Of a stretch of DNA of 64,000 nucleotides, positions 12,887 through 27,015 are shown in pieces (the first letter of the stretch is position 1; every line of letters starts with the position of its first letter). The stretch spans positions 192,001 through 256,000 of the forward strand of contig CAWGYD010000010.1 of NCBI GenBank assembly GCA_963826785.1, read 5' to 3'. The notes beneath the pieces are model-generated. The model saw nothing but the letters and a program-made list of their open reading frames with translations, ran no database searches and had not been told where the DNA came from. Source of the stretch: an uncultured delta proteobacterium (GTDB lineage: Bacteria; Desulfobacterota; Desulfobacteria; Desulfobacterales; Desulfosalsimonadaceae). Both the position numbers and the translations under genes were made by a program.

Positions 12887-13504
12887 TCAGGTAAACGCGG
12901 AGATATTGAAAAACTTGAGTGTTTCTTTGGCTTCCCGGATATATTCCTGCCGGTCCAGTCCCAGCATGGGGCGAAAGAAGTTCTCGCCGGAAATAAAGTT
13001 GTGAATGGCATTCATGATGGACAGGACCTTCATCCTGGCGGCAACCGGGACATTTTTCCGATCCTGGGCCAGCCCCATGGAATAGGCGATGTCTGAAATG
13101 TATTCCGGCACCGTAAAATCGATCAGGCTTCCGTGGCGGGTCTTGGTGAAATACCGGAACAGGGTCAGGTTGGAAATTTCCGGATTTTCAAACAGGTAAT
13201 CCGCAATCTCGTCGATGGCGATTTCAATGCGCTCGGCAAGGGGCCGCCCCTTGATGATCTTTTCAATTTCGATCAGTTTCTGTCGCAGTCCGTTATTGAT
13301 ATCCAAGACCACCGCCTCATAGAGATCCCCTTTTTCCCCCCAGTGGTAATACAGGGTCGATATGTCGATGTTCACGGCTTTTGCGATCATGCGGGTGGTG
13401 GTGCCGTGAAACCCGTATTCGCCGAATATTCTGCGGGCCGCCGCCAGAATCTTTGCCTTCATGGAATCGGGATTCTGCTTGGCCTTTTCAAGTGATGATG
13501 CCAT
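12887..13504 (-). CDS. TetR/AcrR regulator
   Basis: ILAAARRIF..YGFHGTTTRMIAK...LYYHW..K..LY HTH. Confidence 0.9.
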   Translation of the reverse strand: MASSLEKAKQNPDSMKAKILAAARRIFGEYGFHGTTTRMIAKAVNIDISTLYYHWGEKGDLYEAVVLDINNGLRQKLIEIEKIIKGRPLAERIEIAIDEIADYLFENPEISNLTLFRYFTKTRHGSLIDFTVPEYISDIAYSMGLAQDRKNVPVAARMKVLSIMNAIHNFISGENFFRPMLGLDRQEYIREAKETLKFFNISAFT

Positions 13505-15081: not shown

Positions 15082-17214
15082 ATGGCCTTAGATCTGGATG
15101 CCGTCGGAAAGAAAATCGGCCCCATTTCCAAAGATTACAACTGGAAAGATGTAATCCTGTATGCATTGGGCGTGGGTTCCGGATTTTCCGAACCCGAGTT
15201 CACCTATGAAAAAGACCTGAAAGTGATTCCCTCTTTTTCCATAGCGACGATATTTGATTTCCTGACCCATTTCGCCATCAAGGCCAATGTGAATCTGGCC
15301 GGCATTCTGCATGGCGAGCAGGACCTGATCTTTCATCAACCCATCCCCATTGAAGGGACCCTGACCACGGACGGCCAGATCACCCATTTTTATGACAAGG
15401 GGAAAGGCAAAGGGGCCCTGATGGTCGGCGAAAGCGACACTTACCATTCGAACGGCAAAAAGCTGTTCACCAGCAAGCTGACCCTGTTTGCGCGTCTGGA
15501 TGGCGGCTTTAACGGTGAGGAAGCGCCAAAGGAAACCTTTGCTTTTCCGGAAAAAGCCCCCGATTTTGAAATAGAAGCCCGCCCCGACCCGGATCAGCCG
15601 CTCCTCTACCGGCTTTCCGGCGACGTATTTGCACTCCATGCCGATCCCGAGTTCGCCAAGATGGCCGGGTTTGAAAAGCCGATCATGCATGGGCTCTGCA
15701 CCTACGGGTATGCCTGCCGGGCTCTCATGCAGAGCCTGACCCCGGGTGAACCGGAAAAGGTCCGCCGGCTCAAATGCCGTTTTTCCCGCCCCCTGTACCC
15801 GGGCGACCCGATCCGGACCCAGATCTGGAAAACCGGGGATGGCCGTGCGGTGTGGAAGGTCATCAATACCAAATCCGGCGAAGAGGTCATCACCAACGGT
15901 GTTTTCGAATACGGCGACGTTCCCAGAAATGAACTGCGCTTTGATGATCAGGTGGCCATCGTGACCGGCGCCGGCGGCGGCCTGGGAAAAGTGTACGCCC
16001 TGGAACTGGCCAAGCGCGGCGCTAAAGTGGTCGTCAATGACCTGGGTGGAAGCCGTGACGGACAGGGCGGCGCCAGGGGACCGGCAGACCAGGTGGTGGA
16101 TGAGATCACGGCCATGGGCGGCCAGGCCGTGGCCAACTATGATAACGTGGCCACCCCGGAAGGCGGCGAAAACATCGTCAAATCCGCCCTGGAAACATTT
16201 GGCACCGTGGACATCCTGATCAACAACGCGGGAATTCTTCGGGACAAGAGCTTCATCAAAATGGAGCCCGAAAACTGGAAAGCGGTGCTGGATGTTCACC
16301 TGGTGGGCGCCTATAACGTCACCCGGCCGGCATTTGCGGTCATGCGGGAAAAAGGCTACGGCCGAATCATCATGACCACCTCCGCAGCCGGCCTGTACGG
16401 CAATTTCGGTCAAACCAACTACAGCGCCGCCAAGATGGGGCTGGTGGGCTTCATGAATACCCTGAAGCTGGAAGGCCGTAAATACGACATCAAGGTCAAC
16501 ACGGTGGCCCCTATTGCTGCCTCACGCTTGACCGAGGACATCATGCCCCCGGATCTCTTTGAAAAACTCAAACCCGAGTATGTCTCGCCCCTGGTGCTTT
16601 ACCTGTCGTCGGATCGCTGCAAGGAAACCGGTTATATGTACAACGCCGGAATGGGATTTTTCAACCGGGCCGCCGTGGTCACCGGCTCCGGAACCACCAT
16701 CGGCGACGGGATCAACCCGCCGGCCGCGGAAGATGTGGCTGCCAGTTTCGACAAGATCAGCTCGCTTTCCGGAGGGAAGGAATACGGGGAACTGAACGAA
16801 CAGGTGGGCGACCTGATGAATGCATTTTCCGCTCCCGCTTCGGGCAGCGGACAGCGTGCCGGAAAAAAGCAGGCCGGCTCGGTGAAGGATGTTTTTTCCG
16901 CCATGGCCGATGCCTTCGACCCTGAAGCCGCCAAAGGCGTGGATGTGATATTTCAGTACCACATTTCCGGGGATAAGGGAGGCGACTGGCAGGTGGTGAT
17001 TCAAAATCAGACCTGCACGGTTTCACCGGGGGTTCACGAAAAGCCCACCTGCACGCTGAAGATGCAGGATATCGATTTTCTGGACATGATCGGCGGCACC
17101 CTGCCCGCCATGCAGGCGTACACGTCCGGAAAGCTGAAAATCGAGGGGGACATCATGAAATCCCAGCTGATCGAAAAACTGTTCAAATCATATAATAAGG
17201 AGATCAAATCATGA
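15082..17214 (+). CDS. Fusion: MaoC-type (R)-enoyl-CoA hydratase 2 + SDR (R)-3-hydroxyacyl-CoA dehydrogenase + SCP2 (MFE-2-like, permuted order)
   Basis: YRLSGDxxxLHxDP...HGLCT hydratase-2 motif; TGAGGGLG, NNAG, YSAAK; C-terminal AYTSGKLKIEGD SCP2. Confidence 0.9.
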   Translation: MALDLDAVGKKIGPISKDYNWKDVILYALGVGSGFSEPEFTYEKDLKVIPSFSIATIFDFLTHFAIKANVNLAGILHGEQDLIFHQPIPIEGTLTTDGQITHFYDKGKGKGALMVGESDTYHSNGKKLFTSKLTLFARLDGGFNGEEAPKETFAFPEKAPDFEIEARPDPDQPLLYRLSGDVFALHADPEFAKMAGFEKPIMHGLCTYGYACRALMQSLTPGEPEKVRRLKCRFSRPLYPGDPIRTQIWKTGDGRAVWKVINTKSGEEVITNGVFEYGDVPRNELRFDDQVAIVTGAGGGLGKVYALELAKRGAKVVVNDLGGSRDGQGGARGPADQVVDEITAMGGQAVANYDNVATPEGGENIVKSALETFGTVDILINNAGILRDKSFIKMEPENWKAVLDVHLVGAYNVTRPAFAVMREKGYGRIIMTTSAAGLYGNFGQTNYSAAKMGLVGFMNTLKLEGRKYDIKVNTVAPIAASRLTEDIMPPDLFEKLKPEYVSPLVLYLSSDRCKETGYMYNAGMGFFNRAAVVTGSGTTIGDGINPPAAEDVAASFDKISSLSGGKEYGELNEQVGDLMNAFSAPASGSGQRAGKKQAGSVKDVFSAMADAFDPEAAKGVDVIFQYHISGDKGGDWQVVIQNQTCTVSPGVHEKPTCTLKMQDIDFLDMIGGTLPAMQAYTSGKLKIEGDIMKSQLIEKLFKSYNKEIKS

Positions 17215-19955
17215 TTGGAATCACATCTTACGGCGCCTATATTCCCCGTTTGAGATTAAACCGGATGGCGATTTTTCAAAGCATGGGATGGTTCGCCCCG
17301 GCGGTCATCATGGTGGCCCAGGGGGAACGCTCCATGTGCAACTGGGATGAAGACCCCATCACCATGGCGGTTGCCGCTTCCAGGGACTGCCTGGCCGGCA
17401 TGGACAAATCCGGAATCGACGGGATGTTTCTGGCCTCAACCACCCTGCCCTTTGCCGACCGCCAGAACGCCGGCATCGTGTCAACGGCCTTGAATTTACC
17501 GGACCAGATCGCCACGGCAGATTACACCTCCTCCCAGAAAGCGGGCACCAATGCCCTGCTCGGAGCCCTGGAATCCGTCAAAAGCGGCGAGCGCAAATCC
17601 GTTCTGGTGACGGGCACGGACCAGCGGGAAACCCGGCCGGCCTATTTTTATGAAATGTGGTTCGGCGACGGGGCGGCATCCCTTCTGGTGGGCGACACCG
17701 ATGTGATCGCCGAGTTCAAGGGCTCCTATTCGGTCTCCTATGACTTCGTGGACCATTATCGCGGCGCCCGGAAGCGTTTCGACTACACATGGGAGGAACG
17801 GTGGGTCCGGGATGAAGGATATTCCAAGATCATTCCGGAAGCAGTTAACGGACTGCTGAAAAAATGCAATCTGAACATCCAAGATGTCAGCAGACTGGTT
17901 TATCCCTGCTATTTCAAAGCCGAACACCGGGGCATCGCCAAAAAACTGGGGGCCTCCGCCGGGCAGCTGGTGGACAACCTGCACGAGGTGTGCGGCGAAA
18001 CCGGCACGGCCCATCCCCTGCTCATGCTGACCCAGGCCCTGGATGAAGCCAAACCCGGCGACAAAATCGTGGTGGCCGGGTTCGGCCAGGGATCGAATGC
18101 CTTTTTGTTTCAGGTGACTGAAAATATCGAAAAACTGCCCAGGCGGGATAAATTCAAGACCACGCTGGAGTACAAGGAAACGATCGACAATTACCCCAAG
18201 TTCCTGGAATTCAGAAATTTGATCGAGCCGGAGCGCGGCATCCGTGCCGAATCGCCCACCCAGACGGCCGTGACCGTCCTGTGGCGCCGGCGCAAAATGC
18301 TGCTGGGTCTGGTGGGCGGAAAATGCAGTGCCTGCGGCACCGCCCAGTTTCCCAAAACCCAGGTGTGCGTCAACCCCGCCTGCGTCGCCCATCATACCCA
18401 GCAAGACTATGAATTTGCAGATATTCCCGCCAAGGTAAAGACATATACCGGCGATCTGCTCGCCGTATCGGTGGACCCGCCCCACATTTACGGCATGGTC
18501 CAGTTCGAGGGGGGCGGCCGGTTCATGGCCGATTTTACCGACTGCAAGCTAAACGAGGTCAAGGTCGGGCTTCCCGTGCAGATGGTATTTAGAAAACGCG
18601 GTGATGACCCCCAGCGCGGCTTTGTCAATTACTTCTGGAAAGCCACCCCCATTCCCGGCGCCGCCGACGAGCTGAACAAGATCCGTTTCGACGGCCGGGT
18701 GGCCATTGTCACCGGTGCCGGCGGCGGACTGGGCCGCACTTATGCGCTGGAAATGGCCAAACGCGGCGCGGCCGTGGTCATCAACGATCTGGGCGGCGCC
18801 CGTGACGGTTCCGGCGGCGGCTCGACCTCGGCTGCGGACAAAGTGGTCGAGGAAATCAAAGCCATGGGCGGAAAGGCCGTTGCCAACTACGACAATGTCG
18901 CCACCCCCGAAGGGGGCGAAAACATCGTCAAGGCCGCCATGGACGCCTTCGGCCGGGTGGACATCCTGATCAACAATGCGGGCATTCTGCGGGACAAGAG
19001 CTTTACCAAAATGGAGCCGGACAACTGGGCCGCGGTCAAGGCGGTTCATTTGAACGGGGCATACAACGTAACCCGCCCCGCCTATAAAATCATGCGGGAA
19101 AACGGCTTCGGCCGCATCATCATGACCACATCGGCCGCCGGTCTGTACGGCAATTTCGGCCAGACCAACTACAGCGCCGCCAAGATGGCCCTGGTGGGTT
19201 TGATGAACACCCTCAAGCTGGAAGGCCAGAAATATGACGTGAAGGTCAATACGGTGGCCCCCATCGCCGCTTCCCGGCTCACCGAGGATATCATGCCGCC
19301 GGAAGTGTTTGAAAAACTCAAACCCGAATTCGTGGCCCCGCTGGTGCTCTATCTGTGCAGCGAAAAATGCGGGGAAACCGGAAAGATATTCAATGCCGGG
19401 ATGGGCTACTTCAACCGGGCGGCCGTTCTGACCAGCCCGGGCATCAAGCTCGGCGAAGGCGATCAGCTTCCCACGCCCGAAGAGATCAGCGAAAAAATCG
19501 AGCACATCAACGACATGGAAGGGGCCAAGGAATTTGCGGATTTGAATTCCGCCCTGATGGACCTGATGACCCCAAAAGCCGCCGTCGCCAAAAAAGGCCC
19601 TGAAAAGGAAGCCGGGGGGGCCGACGGGGGGGCCAAGGTGAGCGTTGCGGAAATTTTCGACAAGATGCCCGGCGCCTTCAACAAAGAGGCCGCCAAGGGA
19701 GTGGATGTGGTCTTTCAGTATGACATCTCCGGACCGTCCGGCGGGCAGTGGACCGTCGCCATCAAGGATCAGACCTGCACGGTCTCCCAGGGCACTGCCG
19801 ATAAGCCGACCTGCACGCTGAAAATCGCCGATGCCGACTTTGTCGACATGATTTCCGGGGTGCTCGATCCCATGAAGGCGTTTACCACCGGGAAACTCAA
19901 GATCGATGGAGACGTGATGAAATCCCAGCTGATCGGGAAACTGTTTAAACTCTAA
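15937..19955 (+). repeat. Duplicated SDR-SCP2 coding module (about 15937-17190 and 18684-19955)
   Basis: Identical DNA runs such as ACATCCTGATCAACAA, ACCAACTACAGCGCCGCCAAGATGG and TTTGAAAAACTCAAACCCGA in both copies. Confidence 0.9.
17211..19955 (+). CDS. Fusion: HMG-CoA-synthase-like + DUF35 (Zn-ribbon/OB fold) + SDR + SCP2
   Basis: GITSYGAYIPR, DEDPITMAV, GDGAA; CSAC...CVNPAC and YFWKA; second SDR (YSAAK); SCP2 AFTTGKLKIDGD; ATGA overlap with the upstream gene. Confidence 0.88.
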   Translation: MIGITSYGAYIPRLRLNRMAIFQSMGWFAPAVIMVAQGERSMCNWDEDPITMAVAASRDCLAGMDKSGIDGMFLASTTLPFADRQNAGIVSTALNLPDQIATADYTSSQKAGTNALLGALESVKSGERKSVLVTGTDQRETRPAYFYEMWFGDGAASLLVGDTDVIAEFKGSYSVSYDFVDHYRGARKRFDYTWEERWVRDEGYSKIIPEAVNGLLKKCNLNIQDVSRLVYPCYFKAEHRGIAKKLGASAGQLVDNLHEVCGETGTAHPLLMLTQALDEAKPGDKIVVAGFGQGSNAFLFQVTENIEKLPRRDKFKTTLEYKETIDNYPKFLEFRNLIEPERGIRAESPTQTAVTVLWRRRKMLLGLVGGKCSACGTAQFPKTQVCVNPACVAHHTQQDYEFADIPAKVKTYTGDLLAVSVDPPHIYGMVQFEGGGRFMADFTDCKLNEVKVGLPVQMVFRKRGDDPQRGFVNYFWKATPIPGAADELNKIRFDGRVAIVTGAGGGLGRTYALEMAKRGAAVVINDLGGARDGSGGGSTSAADKVVEEIKAMGGKAVANYDNVATPEGGENIVKAAMDAFGRVDILINNAGILRDKSFTKMEPDNWAAVKAVHLNGAYNVTRPAYKIMRENGFGRIIMTTSAAGLYGNFGQTNYSAAKMALVGLMNTLKLEGQKYDVKVNTVAPIAASRLTEDIMPPEVFEKLKPEFVAPLVLYLCSEKCGETGKIFNAGMGYFNRAAVLTSPGIKLGEGDQLPTPEEISEKIEHINDMEGAKEFADLNSALMDLMTPKAAVAKKGPEKEAGGADGGAKVSVAEIFDKMPGAFNKEAAKGVDVVFQYDISGPSGGQWTVAIKDQTCTVSQGTADKPTCTLKIADADFVDMISGVLDPMKAFTTGKLKIDGDVMKSQLIGKLFKL

Positions 19956-19982
19956 TCATTTGCCATAACAGGAGGAAATACC

Positions 19983-21185
19983 ATGGCTACAGGAATAAGA
20001 GACAAGGTCGCCATCATCGGCATGGGCTGCACCAAATTCGGGGAACGCTGGGACGTGGGCGCCGAGGAACTCATGGTGGAGGCATATGAGGAATGCCTGG
20101 CCGATGCCGGAATCGAGCAGAACGACATCGGGGCCGCCTGGCTGGGCACCTGCATGGACGAAGTCAATGTGGGTAAAACCGCCATGCCTTTGGCCACCAC
20201 GTTGCGGCTCCCCATGATCCCGGTAACCCGAGTGGAAAATTACTGCGCCACGGGAACCGAAGCCTTCCGGGGGGCCTGCTATGCCGTGGCTTCCGGGGCT
20301 TATGACATCTGCCTGGCCCTGGGCGTGGAGAAGCTGAAAGACACCGGGTACGGCGGCCTTCCCGGGGGCGGCTCCAGTGCCGGAAGCCTGCTGTGGCAGT
20401 GGTGGCCGAACCTCACCGCCCCCGGGTCATTCGCCCAGCTGGCGTCCGCCTATGCGGCCAAGTACAAGGTCAAGGACGCGGACCTCAAGCGGGCCATTGC
20501 CCATATTTCGGTGAAGAGCCACGAAAACGGGTCGCTCAATCCCAAGGCCCACCTGCGCAAGAAGGTCACCGAGGACCAGGTCATGGCCGCCCCCATCATC
20601 GCCCATCCACTGGGTCTGTTCGACTGCTGCGGGGTGAGCGACGGGTCGGCATGCGCCATCGTCACCACCCCGGAAATCGCCCAGAAACTGGGGAAAAAGG
20701 ATTTTGTGACCGTCAAGGCCCTCCAGCTGGCGCTGAGCAGCGGCGAGGAAGTCGGTTTCAACGAGTGGGATGGGGACCATTTCATGACCACCACCAAATG
20801 CAGCCTCAAGGCGTATGAGGAAGCCGGTGTAACCGATCCCAGAAAAGAGATTTCCATGATGGAAGTTCACGACTGTTTTTCCATCACCGAGTTCGTCACT
20901 TACGAGGATCTGCACATTTCTCCCCGGGGGGGCGCCATCAAGGATATCATGAACGGCTTCTATGACCGGGACGGGGGCGTTCCCTGCCAGGTGGACGGCG
21001 GGCTAAAGTGCTTCGGCCATCCCATCGGCGCCTCCGGCCTGCGGATGCTCTATGAGATGTATTTGCAGCTCCACGGCCGGGCGGCCGACCGCCAGATTGA
21101 AAACCCGAAGCTGGGTTTGACCCATAACCTGGGAGGATTTCCGTTCCAGAACATCTGCAGCATCGCCATCATCGGAAAATATTAA
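19983..21185 (+). CDS. SCP2-type thiolase / acetyl-CoA acetyltransferase
   Basis: ENYCATG (nucleophile Cys), EVHDCF, GHPIGASG, HNLGG; RBS GGAGG. Confidence 0.92.
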   Translation: MATGIRDKVAIIGMGCTKFGERWDVGAEELMVEAYEECLADAGIEQNDIGAAWLGTCMDEVNVGKTAMPLATTLRLPMIPVTRVENYCATGTEAFRGACYAVASGAYDICLALGVEKLKDTGYGGLPGGGSSAGSLLWQWWPNLTAPGSFAQLASAYAAKYKVKDADLKRAIAHISVKSHENGSLNPKAHLRKKVTEDQVMAAPIIAHPLGLFDCCGVSDGSACAIVTTPEIAQKLGKKDFVTVKALQLALSSGEEVGFNEWDGDHFMTTTKCSLKAYEEAGVTDPRKEISMMEVHDCFSITEFVTYEDLHISPRGGAIKDIMNGFYDRDGGVPCQVDGGLKCFGHPIGASGLRMLYEMYLQLHGRAADRQIENPKLGLTHNLGGFPFQNICSIAIIGKY

Positions 21186-21188
21186 TCA

Positions 21189-21221
21189 TTGCGATGGGGC
21201 AAAAATTTTGCCCCATCGCAA
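21189..21221. repeat. Perfect 16-bp inverted repeat (REP-like palindrome)
   Basis: TTGCGATGGGGCAAAA-A-TTTTGCCCCATCGCAA. Confidence 0.8.
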
Positions 21222-21232
21222 ACCGCAACAAG

Positions 21233-21276
21233 AAAGGGCGCCACGGGTTTTTAGACCCGGCGGCGCCCTTTTTTTT
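21233..21276. terminator. Probable bidirectional rho-independent terminator
   Basis: AAAGGGCGCC...GGCGCCCTTT plus T run between convergent genes. Confidence 0.8.
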
Positions 21277-21299: not shown

Positions 21300-22214
21300 T
21301 CAGAACCTAAGGGCAAGCCCCCCTTCTATTATATTGCGGTCGTAATCATAGGTGTCCACGTTGGAATGGGTGTGGAAATAGGAATAGCTGGTGTAGACCC
21401 CCACATGGGAGGTGAACTGATACTGCATGTCCACATTAAATGCCAGGAGATCGTCCTCCCGGTCATCGGTGGAGGAAGAAGCGGTTTCATAAAAGTTCAC
21501 CTTCGCATCATAGGCGGTGTGCTGGTAATCAACCGAAAACCGGATTTTGCTCAAGTTGTGAAAAAAGATGATGTAGCCGAATCCGCCGCCAAAGGCGGTC
21601 CCGTCTTCATCCGCCGGGTAGTCATCCCGGTCGTCGATACTGGATGCCAGCCCGTAGAGTGCCACGGCATGGGTGATGTTGGGAAGAAGGTACGTCACGG
21701 TGGGAGTGGCATTATAGCGCACATAATCCGTTTTTTCGTCCTCCAGTACGTAATTATATCCCAGAGGGAGGCTGTAGATGAAGTTGCCCGAGAAATACTG
21801 CGGTTCCACCGACACGGTCTGATCGATGACATTATACTGATCATAATCCTGGTGGAAATCGGCATAAGCGCTGTAATCGACGCGCATGCTGAACTGGTTT
21901 TTCACCGGAAACTGCCAGCCGATATTGCCGCTGGCTTCAAATGCGGAATCTTCTTCCTTGTCATTTACATCACCGGAAGATCCCGCGCCCACCCGGGTAT
22001 CGTAAAGACCGCCAAGCCGCAGGGATGCGGAAAGTGGGCTGGCGTCTGTCCGGGCTTGTTTGACACGGTTTTCCATGCCGGTCTTCCCCACCGGGGAAGT
22101 GCTCCGTGACGGAGCGGAGCAGCCTCAGCCGGCTGCCCATGCGGATGTGTATATGCCCGGCAGTAATGCAAGGCAGATGATGGCGATGAATAATGCGGTA
22201 AACGATGATTTCAC
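21300..22214 (-). CDS. Outer-membrane beta-barrel protein with in-frame TGA (candidate selenocysteine, U-G-C motif)
   Basis: AAGGAG RBS then GTG at 22214: MKSSFTALFIAIICLALLPGIYTSAWAAG-TGA(22127-22125)-GCSAPSRSTSP, continuing in frame into ORF 21300..22091, which has amphipathic strands and ends GLALRF. Confidence 0.75.
22083..22124 (-). promoter_or_regulatory. SECIS-like stem-loop 3' of the in-frame UGA
   Basis: mRNA UGA-GGCUGCUCC-GCUCCG[UCA]CGGAGC-A-CUUCCCC[GGU]GGGGAAG; the G-starting loop lies 32 nt after the UGA. Confidence 0.55.
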
Positions 22215-22527
22215 GCTGTTCTCCTTTTTCGATGGTTGGCGCATCAAGGGCTGACAAGCAGCGGATTTGCCAAATTTATGCATTGAGGATAATCTTTACC
22301 GGATGCCAATTATCTTTGCAAGAATTTTCCCCGCATCCGGGGATGGTCATTTTAGTAAAACACGGCGCACCGCTACTTCACGACCATATATCAGTATAAT
22401 ACTATAAATTTCAGTTATATAATTGTAAATAAATTTTTTGTTGACGTTTTGTTTTGCGACATGCTAAAAAAACTAAACTGGTTGGCCGACTTATTTTTTT
22501 TTAACCCACCGATGAAGGAGTTTTTCC

Positions 22528-26436: not shown

Positions 26437-27015
26437 TTGAACGAGTTAAAAAAGCAAGCCAAGCAGGCTGAAAAACGCCAGCAGATCATTGACGCGGCCG
26501 CCCGCCTGATGGTCCGGCAGGGAATCGAAAAAACCAGCCTTTCGGACATTGCAAAAGAAGCCGGCATCAGCAAAGGCAGCCTTTACTACTATTATGCATC
26601 CAAAAATGACCTGATTTTCGACATCACCGAATTTCATATCAACCAGATATCTGCAAACCTTTTTTCCATCATAGAAGAAAGCAAGGGGAACGCCAGCTGG
26701 GAGGATCTGTTAAAGATCCTGTTTGACCGGATACTGGCCGCCGATACCCGGGGGCGGCTGCACCTGTATCTTATTCAGCAGACCCTGAGCGGCAACGGGG
26801 AACTGGCTGGACGGTTTAAAAAGAAATATGAGGAATGGAACCAGACCATCCGGGAGGGATTTGCCAAGATCGAGCCTGAAAACAAAACCCAATCCGTTCT
26901 TTCCTCTCTGATCATCGCCACCCTGGACGGGTTTCTCATTCAATCTCTTCTCGGTATCGACATCCTGCCGTCTGACATCCTGGTCCGTCATTTGAATGTC
27001 AAGATTGACAAATAG
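26437..27015 (+). CDS. TetR/AcrR regulator
   Basis: TSLSDIAKEAGISKGSLYYYYASK HTH. Confidence 0.9.
   Translation: MNELKKQAKQAEKRQQIIDAAARLMVRQGIEKTSLSDIAKEAGISKGSLYYYYASKNDLIFDITEFHINQISANLFSIIEESKGNASWEDLLKILFDRILAADTRGRLHLYLIQQTLSGNGELAGRFKKKYEEWNQTIREGFAKIEPENKTQSVLSSLIIATLDGFLIQSLLGIDILPSDILVRHLNVKIDK

Follow-up and report, generated by a model that had tools for sequence, protein, structure and literature searches.

The minus-strand gene at the centre of this analysis, in a window of 64,000 nucleotides (the whole stretch of DNA analysed) from an uncultured delta proteobacterium, is almost certainly an intact selenoprotein gene, coding for an exported outer-membrane barrel in which the UGA is predicted to be read as selenocysteine (Sec, U) just after the export signal. 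Judged from sequence, it represents a real selenoprotein family that is absent from the catalogues compared and has been shortened by gene callers, so that the bacterial selenoproteome would gain a family hidden by annotation. For the protein as a whole we favour, with a probability of roughly 0.45, a Sec-bearing barrel forming an acidic channel closed by a plug, with a selenol/thiol pair that would handle sulfur species or soft metal(loid)s. Soluble redox enzymes make up nearly all of the catalogued selenoproteins, and here Sec would sit on the tip of a channel in the outer membrane; the natural Cys variants, of several origins, offer a direct test of the benefit of selenium at the envelope of anaerobic relatives of sulfate reducers. 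The family is narrow, with most members in a single family of Desulfobacterales, and the role given for it here is a proposed one.

The reading frame and its homologues

The full frame runs from a GTG at 22214 to the stop codon at 21302-21300 (304 codons, with a C-terminal Phe) and comprises, in order, a signal peptide, the TGA of a U-G-C motif and a predicted 12-stranded outer-membrane barrel (Table 1). Its sole in-frame TGA is codon 30, with a Cys at codon 32. The called ORF opens at GTG 22091, 41 codons below GTG 22214-22212, without a signal peptide and within the loop of the second of the two hairpins described below. The first-pass annotation had reported the upstream GTG with its AAGGAG site, the signal peptide and the single TGA, and all of these stand in the sequence as it claimed. 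An AAGGA-type site also precedes the start in most of the aligned relatives of the barrel gene, and a hydrophobic leader lies upstream of the TGA in every U-form; the cleavage site of the barrel protein was judged by eye.

Table 1. Predicted features of the barrel gene and its flanks (window positions).
Feature	Position	Strand	Basis or remark
Sigma-70-like promoter candidate	22401..22429	-	10/12 matches; weak
AAGGAG ribosome-binding site, 6 nt upstream of the GTG	22221..22226	-	sequence
Start codon and signal peptide, 27 codons, ending A-W-A, signal peptidase I type	22134..22214	-	
U-G-C motif: TGA 22127-22125 (predicted Sec), Gly, Cys; mature residues 3-5	22119..22127	-	conservation
Hairpin 1	22101..22115	-	unconserved across the family
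SECIS hairpin: stem of 7 bp, loop GGU (22092-22090) 32 nt past the UGA	22083..22099	-	
Short helix, residues 46-53 (19-26 in mature numbering), probable lumen-plug segment	22056..22079	-	model
Acidic beta-barrel predicted for the outer membrane, 12 strands (residues 61-304), plus stop codon	21300..22034	-	
Two strong hairpins, probably terminators, between the barrel gene and the convergent thiolase gene	21190..21275	.	fold

The promoter candidate is weak, since three sigma-70-like sites were found against 1.9 expected and none is conserved upstream of the relatives. No conserved operator was found upstream of the barrel gene, the sole conserved intergenic block adjoining the start of the Fe-ADH gene, and Rfam gave nothing near a gathering score at the barrel gene or at the flanking hairpins. 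This block (window 22465-22500, just upstream of the Fe-ADH gene and strongly conserved over 15 aligned genomes) is likely to be a regulator site or promoter element; TetR-like genes were seen at window 12887-13504 and 26437-27015.

A profile search found matches in 22 of the 58 genomes of the same family, with TGA at the homologous codon in 23/23 full-length copies, a count that excludes one further match, a contig-end fragment. The motifs of these copies are U-G-C (21), U-P-C and U-P-S-C. Among 401 sampled genomes of the order, five outside the family, from three families, also match, all of them with U, as U-G-C (three times), U-N-C and U-A-C. The same TGA is thus present in 28 genes of 27 genomes, at about 27-57% identity and with the frames otherwise open. 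Cys occupies the Sec position in nine full-length database proteins (C-x-C, C-x-x-C and C-x-x-x-C) and in four of 116 Smithellaceae genomes, selB being present in both of the two tested, and five metagenome loci gave U (three), Cys (one) and an absent N-terminus (one). A second Cys follows 2-4 residues past the U/C position in all homologues. The comparison of homologues that had been proposed as a check therefore spoke for Sec: among the full-length homologues examined no residue other than Sec or Cys was seen at this codon, and Trp, Arg or Gly, which the first-pass annotation had held to count against Sec, were not encountered.

The deepest branches of a 60-row tree are occupied by U-forms (midpoint rooting, adjoining a TPR outgroup of which several branches are long) and Cys arose at least three separate times (starred branches). 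None of 400 other genomes of the phylum sample matched at E 1e-25, and the family is therefore narrow. This genome holds no second copy of the barrel gene; in one relative (G007, C69:11342-13237) two tandem barrel genes were observed, with U-P-C and U-G-C; both have a SECIS of their own, at distances of 31 and 26 nt. Gene calling has hidden the motif, in that 17 of the 23 database proteins found start past it and so are left without signal peptide and Sec. The sole names on record are 'hypothetical protein', and one shortened member is the NCBI Desulfobacterales bacterium entry.

The SECIS hairpin and the Sec machinery

Two hairpins had been described downstream of the UGA, and both are present in the minimum-energy fold, with the GGU loop of the second at the distance that the first-pass annotation gave. 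The z score of the fold was -3.4 for a 78-nt stretch and only -0.9 to -1.5 for shorter ones. The second hairpin held up as a SECIS and the first did not: the consensus fold retains the second alone, which is paired in 96% of 175 cells (25 distinct sequences), as against 74% for hairpin 1, which was thereby ruled out as SECIS. When the SECIS partners were slid by 1-3 columns as a control, 53-78% of the cells were paired. Compensatory changes on both sides were found at three of the seven SECIS pairs (15 cells), a value reached in 0/500 shuffles, the number of covarying pairs alone being insignificant (194/500 shuffles) and the related sequences behind all these statistics not being independent. 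Part of the hairpin conservation may be protein-driven, because the hairpin overlaps a conserved S-P/Q-V-G peptide. Taken with the alignment, the second hairpin is supported as a conserved SECIS.

For the bacterial SECIS prediction that had also been proposed, we re-implemented the bSECIS model of section 5 of PMC13188914, which has a loop of 3-9 nt with G as its first or second nucleotide, a stem of 4-16 bp, a distance of 16-37 nt from the UGA and an energy of -7.5 or lower. The hairpin of this gene, with a 3 nt loop, 7 bp, 32 nt and -9.9 kcal/mol (hairpin alone), lies within every one of these ranges, and its energy is similar to that at the hdrA and fdhA Sec sites of the same genome. A G-loop hairpin stands 26-35 nt after the UGA in 26/26 U loci tested; it reaches -7.5 kcal/mol or better in 18 of the 26, as against 5.7% of 3,998 TGAs picked at random from this genome, and 2.7% of the random TGAs have a model hairpin at -9 kcal/mol or better. 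At the three distinct Cys loci of Smithellaceae the SECIS is gone in two, and a similar hairpin is found in one (-7.0).

The host genome carries a tRNA-Sec (selC, C2:46605) and 11 other Sec-type genes with TGA at known Sec sites (four mvhD, five hdrA and two of formate-dehydrogenase type). The selA gene (C3:45209-46668) is frame-split at about C3:45845, where there is a short run of G/C and an assembly indel is the probable cause, and selB and selD were not found in this assembly, which is 87.8% complete. In 3/3 relatives selB adjoins tRNA-His, and tRNA-His is absent here, as are orthologues of the rpsB, tsf, pyrH, rho, dxr, ruvAB, recR and tol-pal genes of the relatives, in the whole assembly. 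Synteny with the relative G002 tracks contig C10 to its last bases; the 15 G002 ORFs just before that point all have orthologues here (15/15) and the next 47, with selD among them, have none. Going by their sequences, we take rpsB, tsf, pyrH and rho to be among these 47. Large blocks thus appear to be missing from the assembly, one starting at the end of contig C10, and frameshifts were found in 3/63 orthologue queries (two distinct genes) and in fdhA. Because of these missing blocks and frameshifts, gaps together with indel errors are the likely cause of the state of selA, selB and selD, and selB and selD most likely fall in assembly gaps. Elsewhere, selB was found in 13 of 14 relatives that carry the barrel gene, and 34 of the 37 genomes searched for selD have it, the co-occurrence of selB being weak as evidence because 53 of 61 relatives have it irrespective of the barrel gene.

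The frameshifts and the broken or missing sel genes are also what could be held to favour a reading of the TGA as a true stop or a base-call error, which would leave a nonsense pseudogene or a barrel starting at GTG 22091. Against this stand the recurrence of the same TGA in otherwise open frames at such distances, the restriction of the remaining homologues to Cys, the covariation of the SECIS, the lack of a signal peptide in the short form, and the mapping of selB and selD to regions that also lack essential genes; we regard it as very improbable for this gene and, from the homologues, as effectively refuted for the family. Contigs from the one DNA run listed for a check of the raw reads leave positions 22125-22127 uncovered. 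Incorporation of Sec at codon 30 is accordingly a prediction that we hold with high confidence.

Several other observations were made on the genome. Its fdhA (C3:220975-222977) spans three frames; mvhD/flpD-type domains (at least 11) and numerous copies of hdrA are spread over contigs C1, C4, C5, C6 and C8, part of them with Sec and part with Cys; a formate-dehydrogenase-alpha-like match at C3:410418-412364 has one internal TAG; and a second tRNA-Trp(CCA) call of 96 nt (ARAGORN, C1:229358-229453) lies beside the normal 76-nt one.

Barrel model, gene neighbourhoods and proposed function

In Pfam, PF13505 (outer-membrane barrel) scored above the cut-off, BBP2 and SlipAM were weak (SlipAM 12.6 against a cut-off of 22 bits), and NCBIfam gave nothing near a cut-off for this protein. 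The AlphaFold2 model of the mature protein (56 sequences) has a mean pLDDT of 88, 12 strands and a helix at mature residues 19-26, and the full-length model agrees with it. An exported barrel with a signal peptide, as proposed at the outset, is therefore supported by the conserved leader and the predicted fold. The best fold match was the COG4313 channel 4RL8 (Z 18.6, rmsd 3.3, 235 aligned, model 13-277 on chain 2-267), followed by autotransporter barrels (Z 18.3 and 17.9), KdgM, NanC and PcoB (Z 15.7, rmsd 3.5, 191 aligned); the best folds are all 12-stranded, the top matches being tied within 1 Z, at identities of only 7-12%, in a search whose rows included no Slam structure. A sequence search of solved structures with the family profile gave no chain at E up to 1. 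According to PMC4493636, the first 14 residues of 4RL8 fill the lumen, and since the model superposes on this chain, a lumen plug is suggested; residues ~40-60 are predicted to be, probably, a plug inside the barrel. The flexible N-terminal tail of the first-pass annotation thus applies to the first nine or so mature residues, which are unplaced in the model (1-9, with pLDDT <50 at U-G-C), and not to the rest of the segment, which bears a helix and superposes on known lumen plugs. The barrels are acidic, with on average 36 D+E against 17 K+R, and four TPR-barrel relatives are approximately balanced.

In this genome the barrel gene forms a unit of its own; it converges on a thiolase operon and points away from the genes for Fe-ADH, SCP2 and aldehyde:ferredoxin oxidoreductase. 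The operon (window 15082-21185) is one of beta-oxidation, conserved in relatives, with two fusions, MaoC dehydratase-SDR-SCP2 (710 aa) and KAS III/HMGS-like-DUF35-SDR-SCP2 (914 aa), followed by an SCP-x-type thiolase. In 19/22 family genomes, this one included, the barrel gene lies beside this lipid cluster, and the flanks examined hold no gene for metal handling. Among the eight U-genomes in which it lies outside the lipid cluster, four have arsenic or metal resistance genes within ~3 kb: G616, with a run of ArsR, ArsP-type permease, thioredoxin, Acr3, ArsF-like, DsbD-like, barrel, rhodanese and CDF genes; G516, with a CDF gene directly behind the barrel gene; G004, with ArsR, an ArsP-type permease and thioredoxin upstream; and G014, where an ars island and a TGA-bearing DUF1573 gene lie beside the barrel gene and a peroxiredoxin gene behind it. 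These four form one clade together with G020, and no metal(loid) neighbours were found in G020, G827, G661 and G693. The Cys loci of Smithellaceae have thiol-redox genes nearby in 4/4 cases, with a CoA-disulfide reductase-rhodanese directly upstream in three and a thioredoxin in one, and peroxiredoxin is also among these genes.

Two neighbouring genes were recorded in their own right. The DUF1573 gene of G014 (L122:7462-8190), ~2 kb from the barrel gene, has its in-frame TGA in G-G-U-G-L, the catalogued motif being U-G-C, and two genes downstream of the barrel in G004 (L123:6277-6804) there is a small exported Cys-rich protein with C-V-C after its signal peptide.

In the explanation that we favour, SelB-tRNA(Sec) would bind the GGU-loop hairpin and Sec would be inserted at codon 30; export, removal of the signal peptide and folding into the barrel would then leave U-G-C at the free N-terminus, on the flexible end of the plug. 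There, at the opening of a plugged and acidic pore that would be PcoB-like in having a disordered metal-binding N-terminus, the selenol/thiol pair may bind or redox-cycle soft electrophiles (Cu, Zn/Cd, Hg, As(III), sulfane sulfur), in a role of envelope metal(loid) and thiol-redox homeostasis. The frame, the conserved codon, the exchange between Sec and Cys, the covariation of the SECIS and the predicted fold come from the analysis itself; Sec incorporation, the position of the plug, the substrate and the direction of transport are the parts that we infer. Four considerations put the metal(loid)/sulfur reading first: how a selenol/thiol pair reacts, the acid shift of the barrel, the operons that it joins when co-oriented and the parallel with PcoB. 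Mobile islands gather unrelated genes, which counts against the metal context, as does the prevalence of the beta-oxidation neighbourhood in the family; the four metal-context loci are not independent, because they belong to one clade, and the state of selA, selB and selD in this assembly weighs against the explanation as well.

That neighbourhood raises the possibility, to which we give some credence and yet hold to be unlikely, that the selenoprotein is an uptake channel, COG4313/FadL-like, for a hydrophobic substrate of the adjoining fatty-acyl degradation genes, with U-x-C as a redox latch on the plug. The cluster of thiolase, MFE-2-like, SCP2, Fe-ADH and aldehyde oxidoreductase genes adjoins deep-branching copies too, the tandem duplication in G007 is at the lipid-cluster site, and the top fold is a plugged channel that PMC4493636 proposes for hydrophobic uptake. 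However, the gene is co-transcribed with neither neighbour, the synteny reaches unrelated genes (AI-2E and LpxR, for example), the barrel has a strongly acidic composition, PF13557 is matched by none of the members, and copies elsewhere are in operons without lipid genes. Kinship with Slam-type barrels suggests another role, which we consider improbable, namely an ancestral Slam-like transfer in which proteins or lipoproteins are brought to the surface as cargo and U-x-C has taken over from the TPR domain the handling of cargo or the shuffling of disulfides; the whole-barrel profile match and the SlipAM hits given below agree with it, and the loss of the TPR domain and of one hairpin to leave 12 strands, a probably plugged lumen and the lack of a conserved exported cargo gene adjoining the loci examined do not.

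A further reading, which we regard as unlikely, is that a Slam-type export barrel, minus TPR domain and one hairpin and plus the Sec tail, was rebuilt as a redox-gated pore; its tail would thread the lumen like an autotransporter helix, placing the selenol/thiol pair at the outer mouth, where capture of soft metal(loid)s or polysulfide would open or close the plug. Sec would then gate an outer-membrane channel, instead of serving catalysis in a soluble enzyme. It was also remarked in the first-pass annotation that A-A-G-U loosely resembles a lipobox, and U does stand 1-3 residues past the signal peptide, as it might if a lipoprotein began with Sec as its lipidated residue. A lipobox requires L, V or I at -3, and 0/30 U-forms have one of these there; moreover, several homologues have Pro, Asp, Glu or Ser just ahead of U/C, and the motif comes after an A-x-A site. 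The lipoprotein (signal peptidase II) reading was rejected on this test, and a seleno-lipobox is hardly credible. To roles other than all these we assign little probability.

Relation to known systems

None of the 119 selenoprotein families in the table of PMC13188914 matches by name, and none of the NCBIfam seleno models matches any of the 56 members. No such family is named in the parts of PMC9312934, PMC12013277, PMC13326102 and PMC13745706 consulted, the portion of the BSepDB supplement seen has no entry for a barrel or porin, and no description was found in the literature, the families of Haft and Tolstoy 2025 having been compared as rows of the 2026 catalogue only. The claim that a Sec barrel is unusual held in part, since outer-membrane selenoproteins have precedent: the GSU2204 family (NF041027) and an FCYXU-type TonB-dependent receptor (NF049945) are catalogued (PMC13188914 Table 1). 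These share with the present family that they are Sec-bearing envelope proteins of Desulfobacterota-type bacteria, and differ in size, motif and fold class; 0/56 members matched either model at E up to 0.01. The DUF1573 (PF07610) and TlpA-like selenoproteins of the same Table 1 share U-G-C, but are not barrels and show no sequence match, and ExtI (PMC5877670) is a porin beside a selenoprotein and not itself one.

The COG4313 channel Pput2725 (4RL8; PF13557; described in PMC4493636) resembles the model in its 12 strands and, probably, in its N-terminal lumen segment, and differs in that the tail of our barrel is longer and bears Sec and Cys, at 12% identity; PF13557 was matched by 0/56 members at E up to 0.01. 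The copper channel PcoB (PDB 7PGE) has a similar fold, an electronegative pore (PMC9210255) and a disordered N-terminal domain that is critical for function (PMC12509749). It uses His/Met where the family has Sec/Cys, at 10% identity, and unlike PcoB no multicopper oxidase partner was seen here.

By sequence the nearest kin are TPR + SlipAM/DUF2860 proteins of 430-530 residues. Along the entire barrel, the family profile matched one TPR + SlipAM protein (probability 99.1, E 5e-19) with a 30-residue deletion, and SlipAM (PF04575, DUF560) is matched by 28/56 members at E up to 0.01. The two groups share Y-D-x-x-V ending strand 1 and S-N-x-x-x-Y-x-Y in the last hairpin; the family has the N-terminal U-x-C in addition and is far more acidic. 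Compared with the Slam type (type XI secretion, PMC8406197), it is without TPR, for which no Pfam match was found in the members, and has lost ~30 residues, or one hairpin, so that 12 strands are predicted as against 14 in Slam-type barrels. The divergent copies of G661 and G693 carry U and yet keep the extra stretch of ~30 residues, which suggests that Sec was gained before the hairpin was lost.
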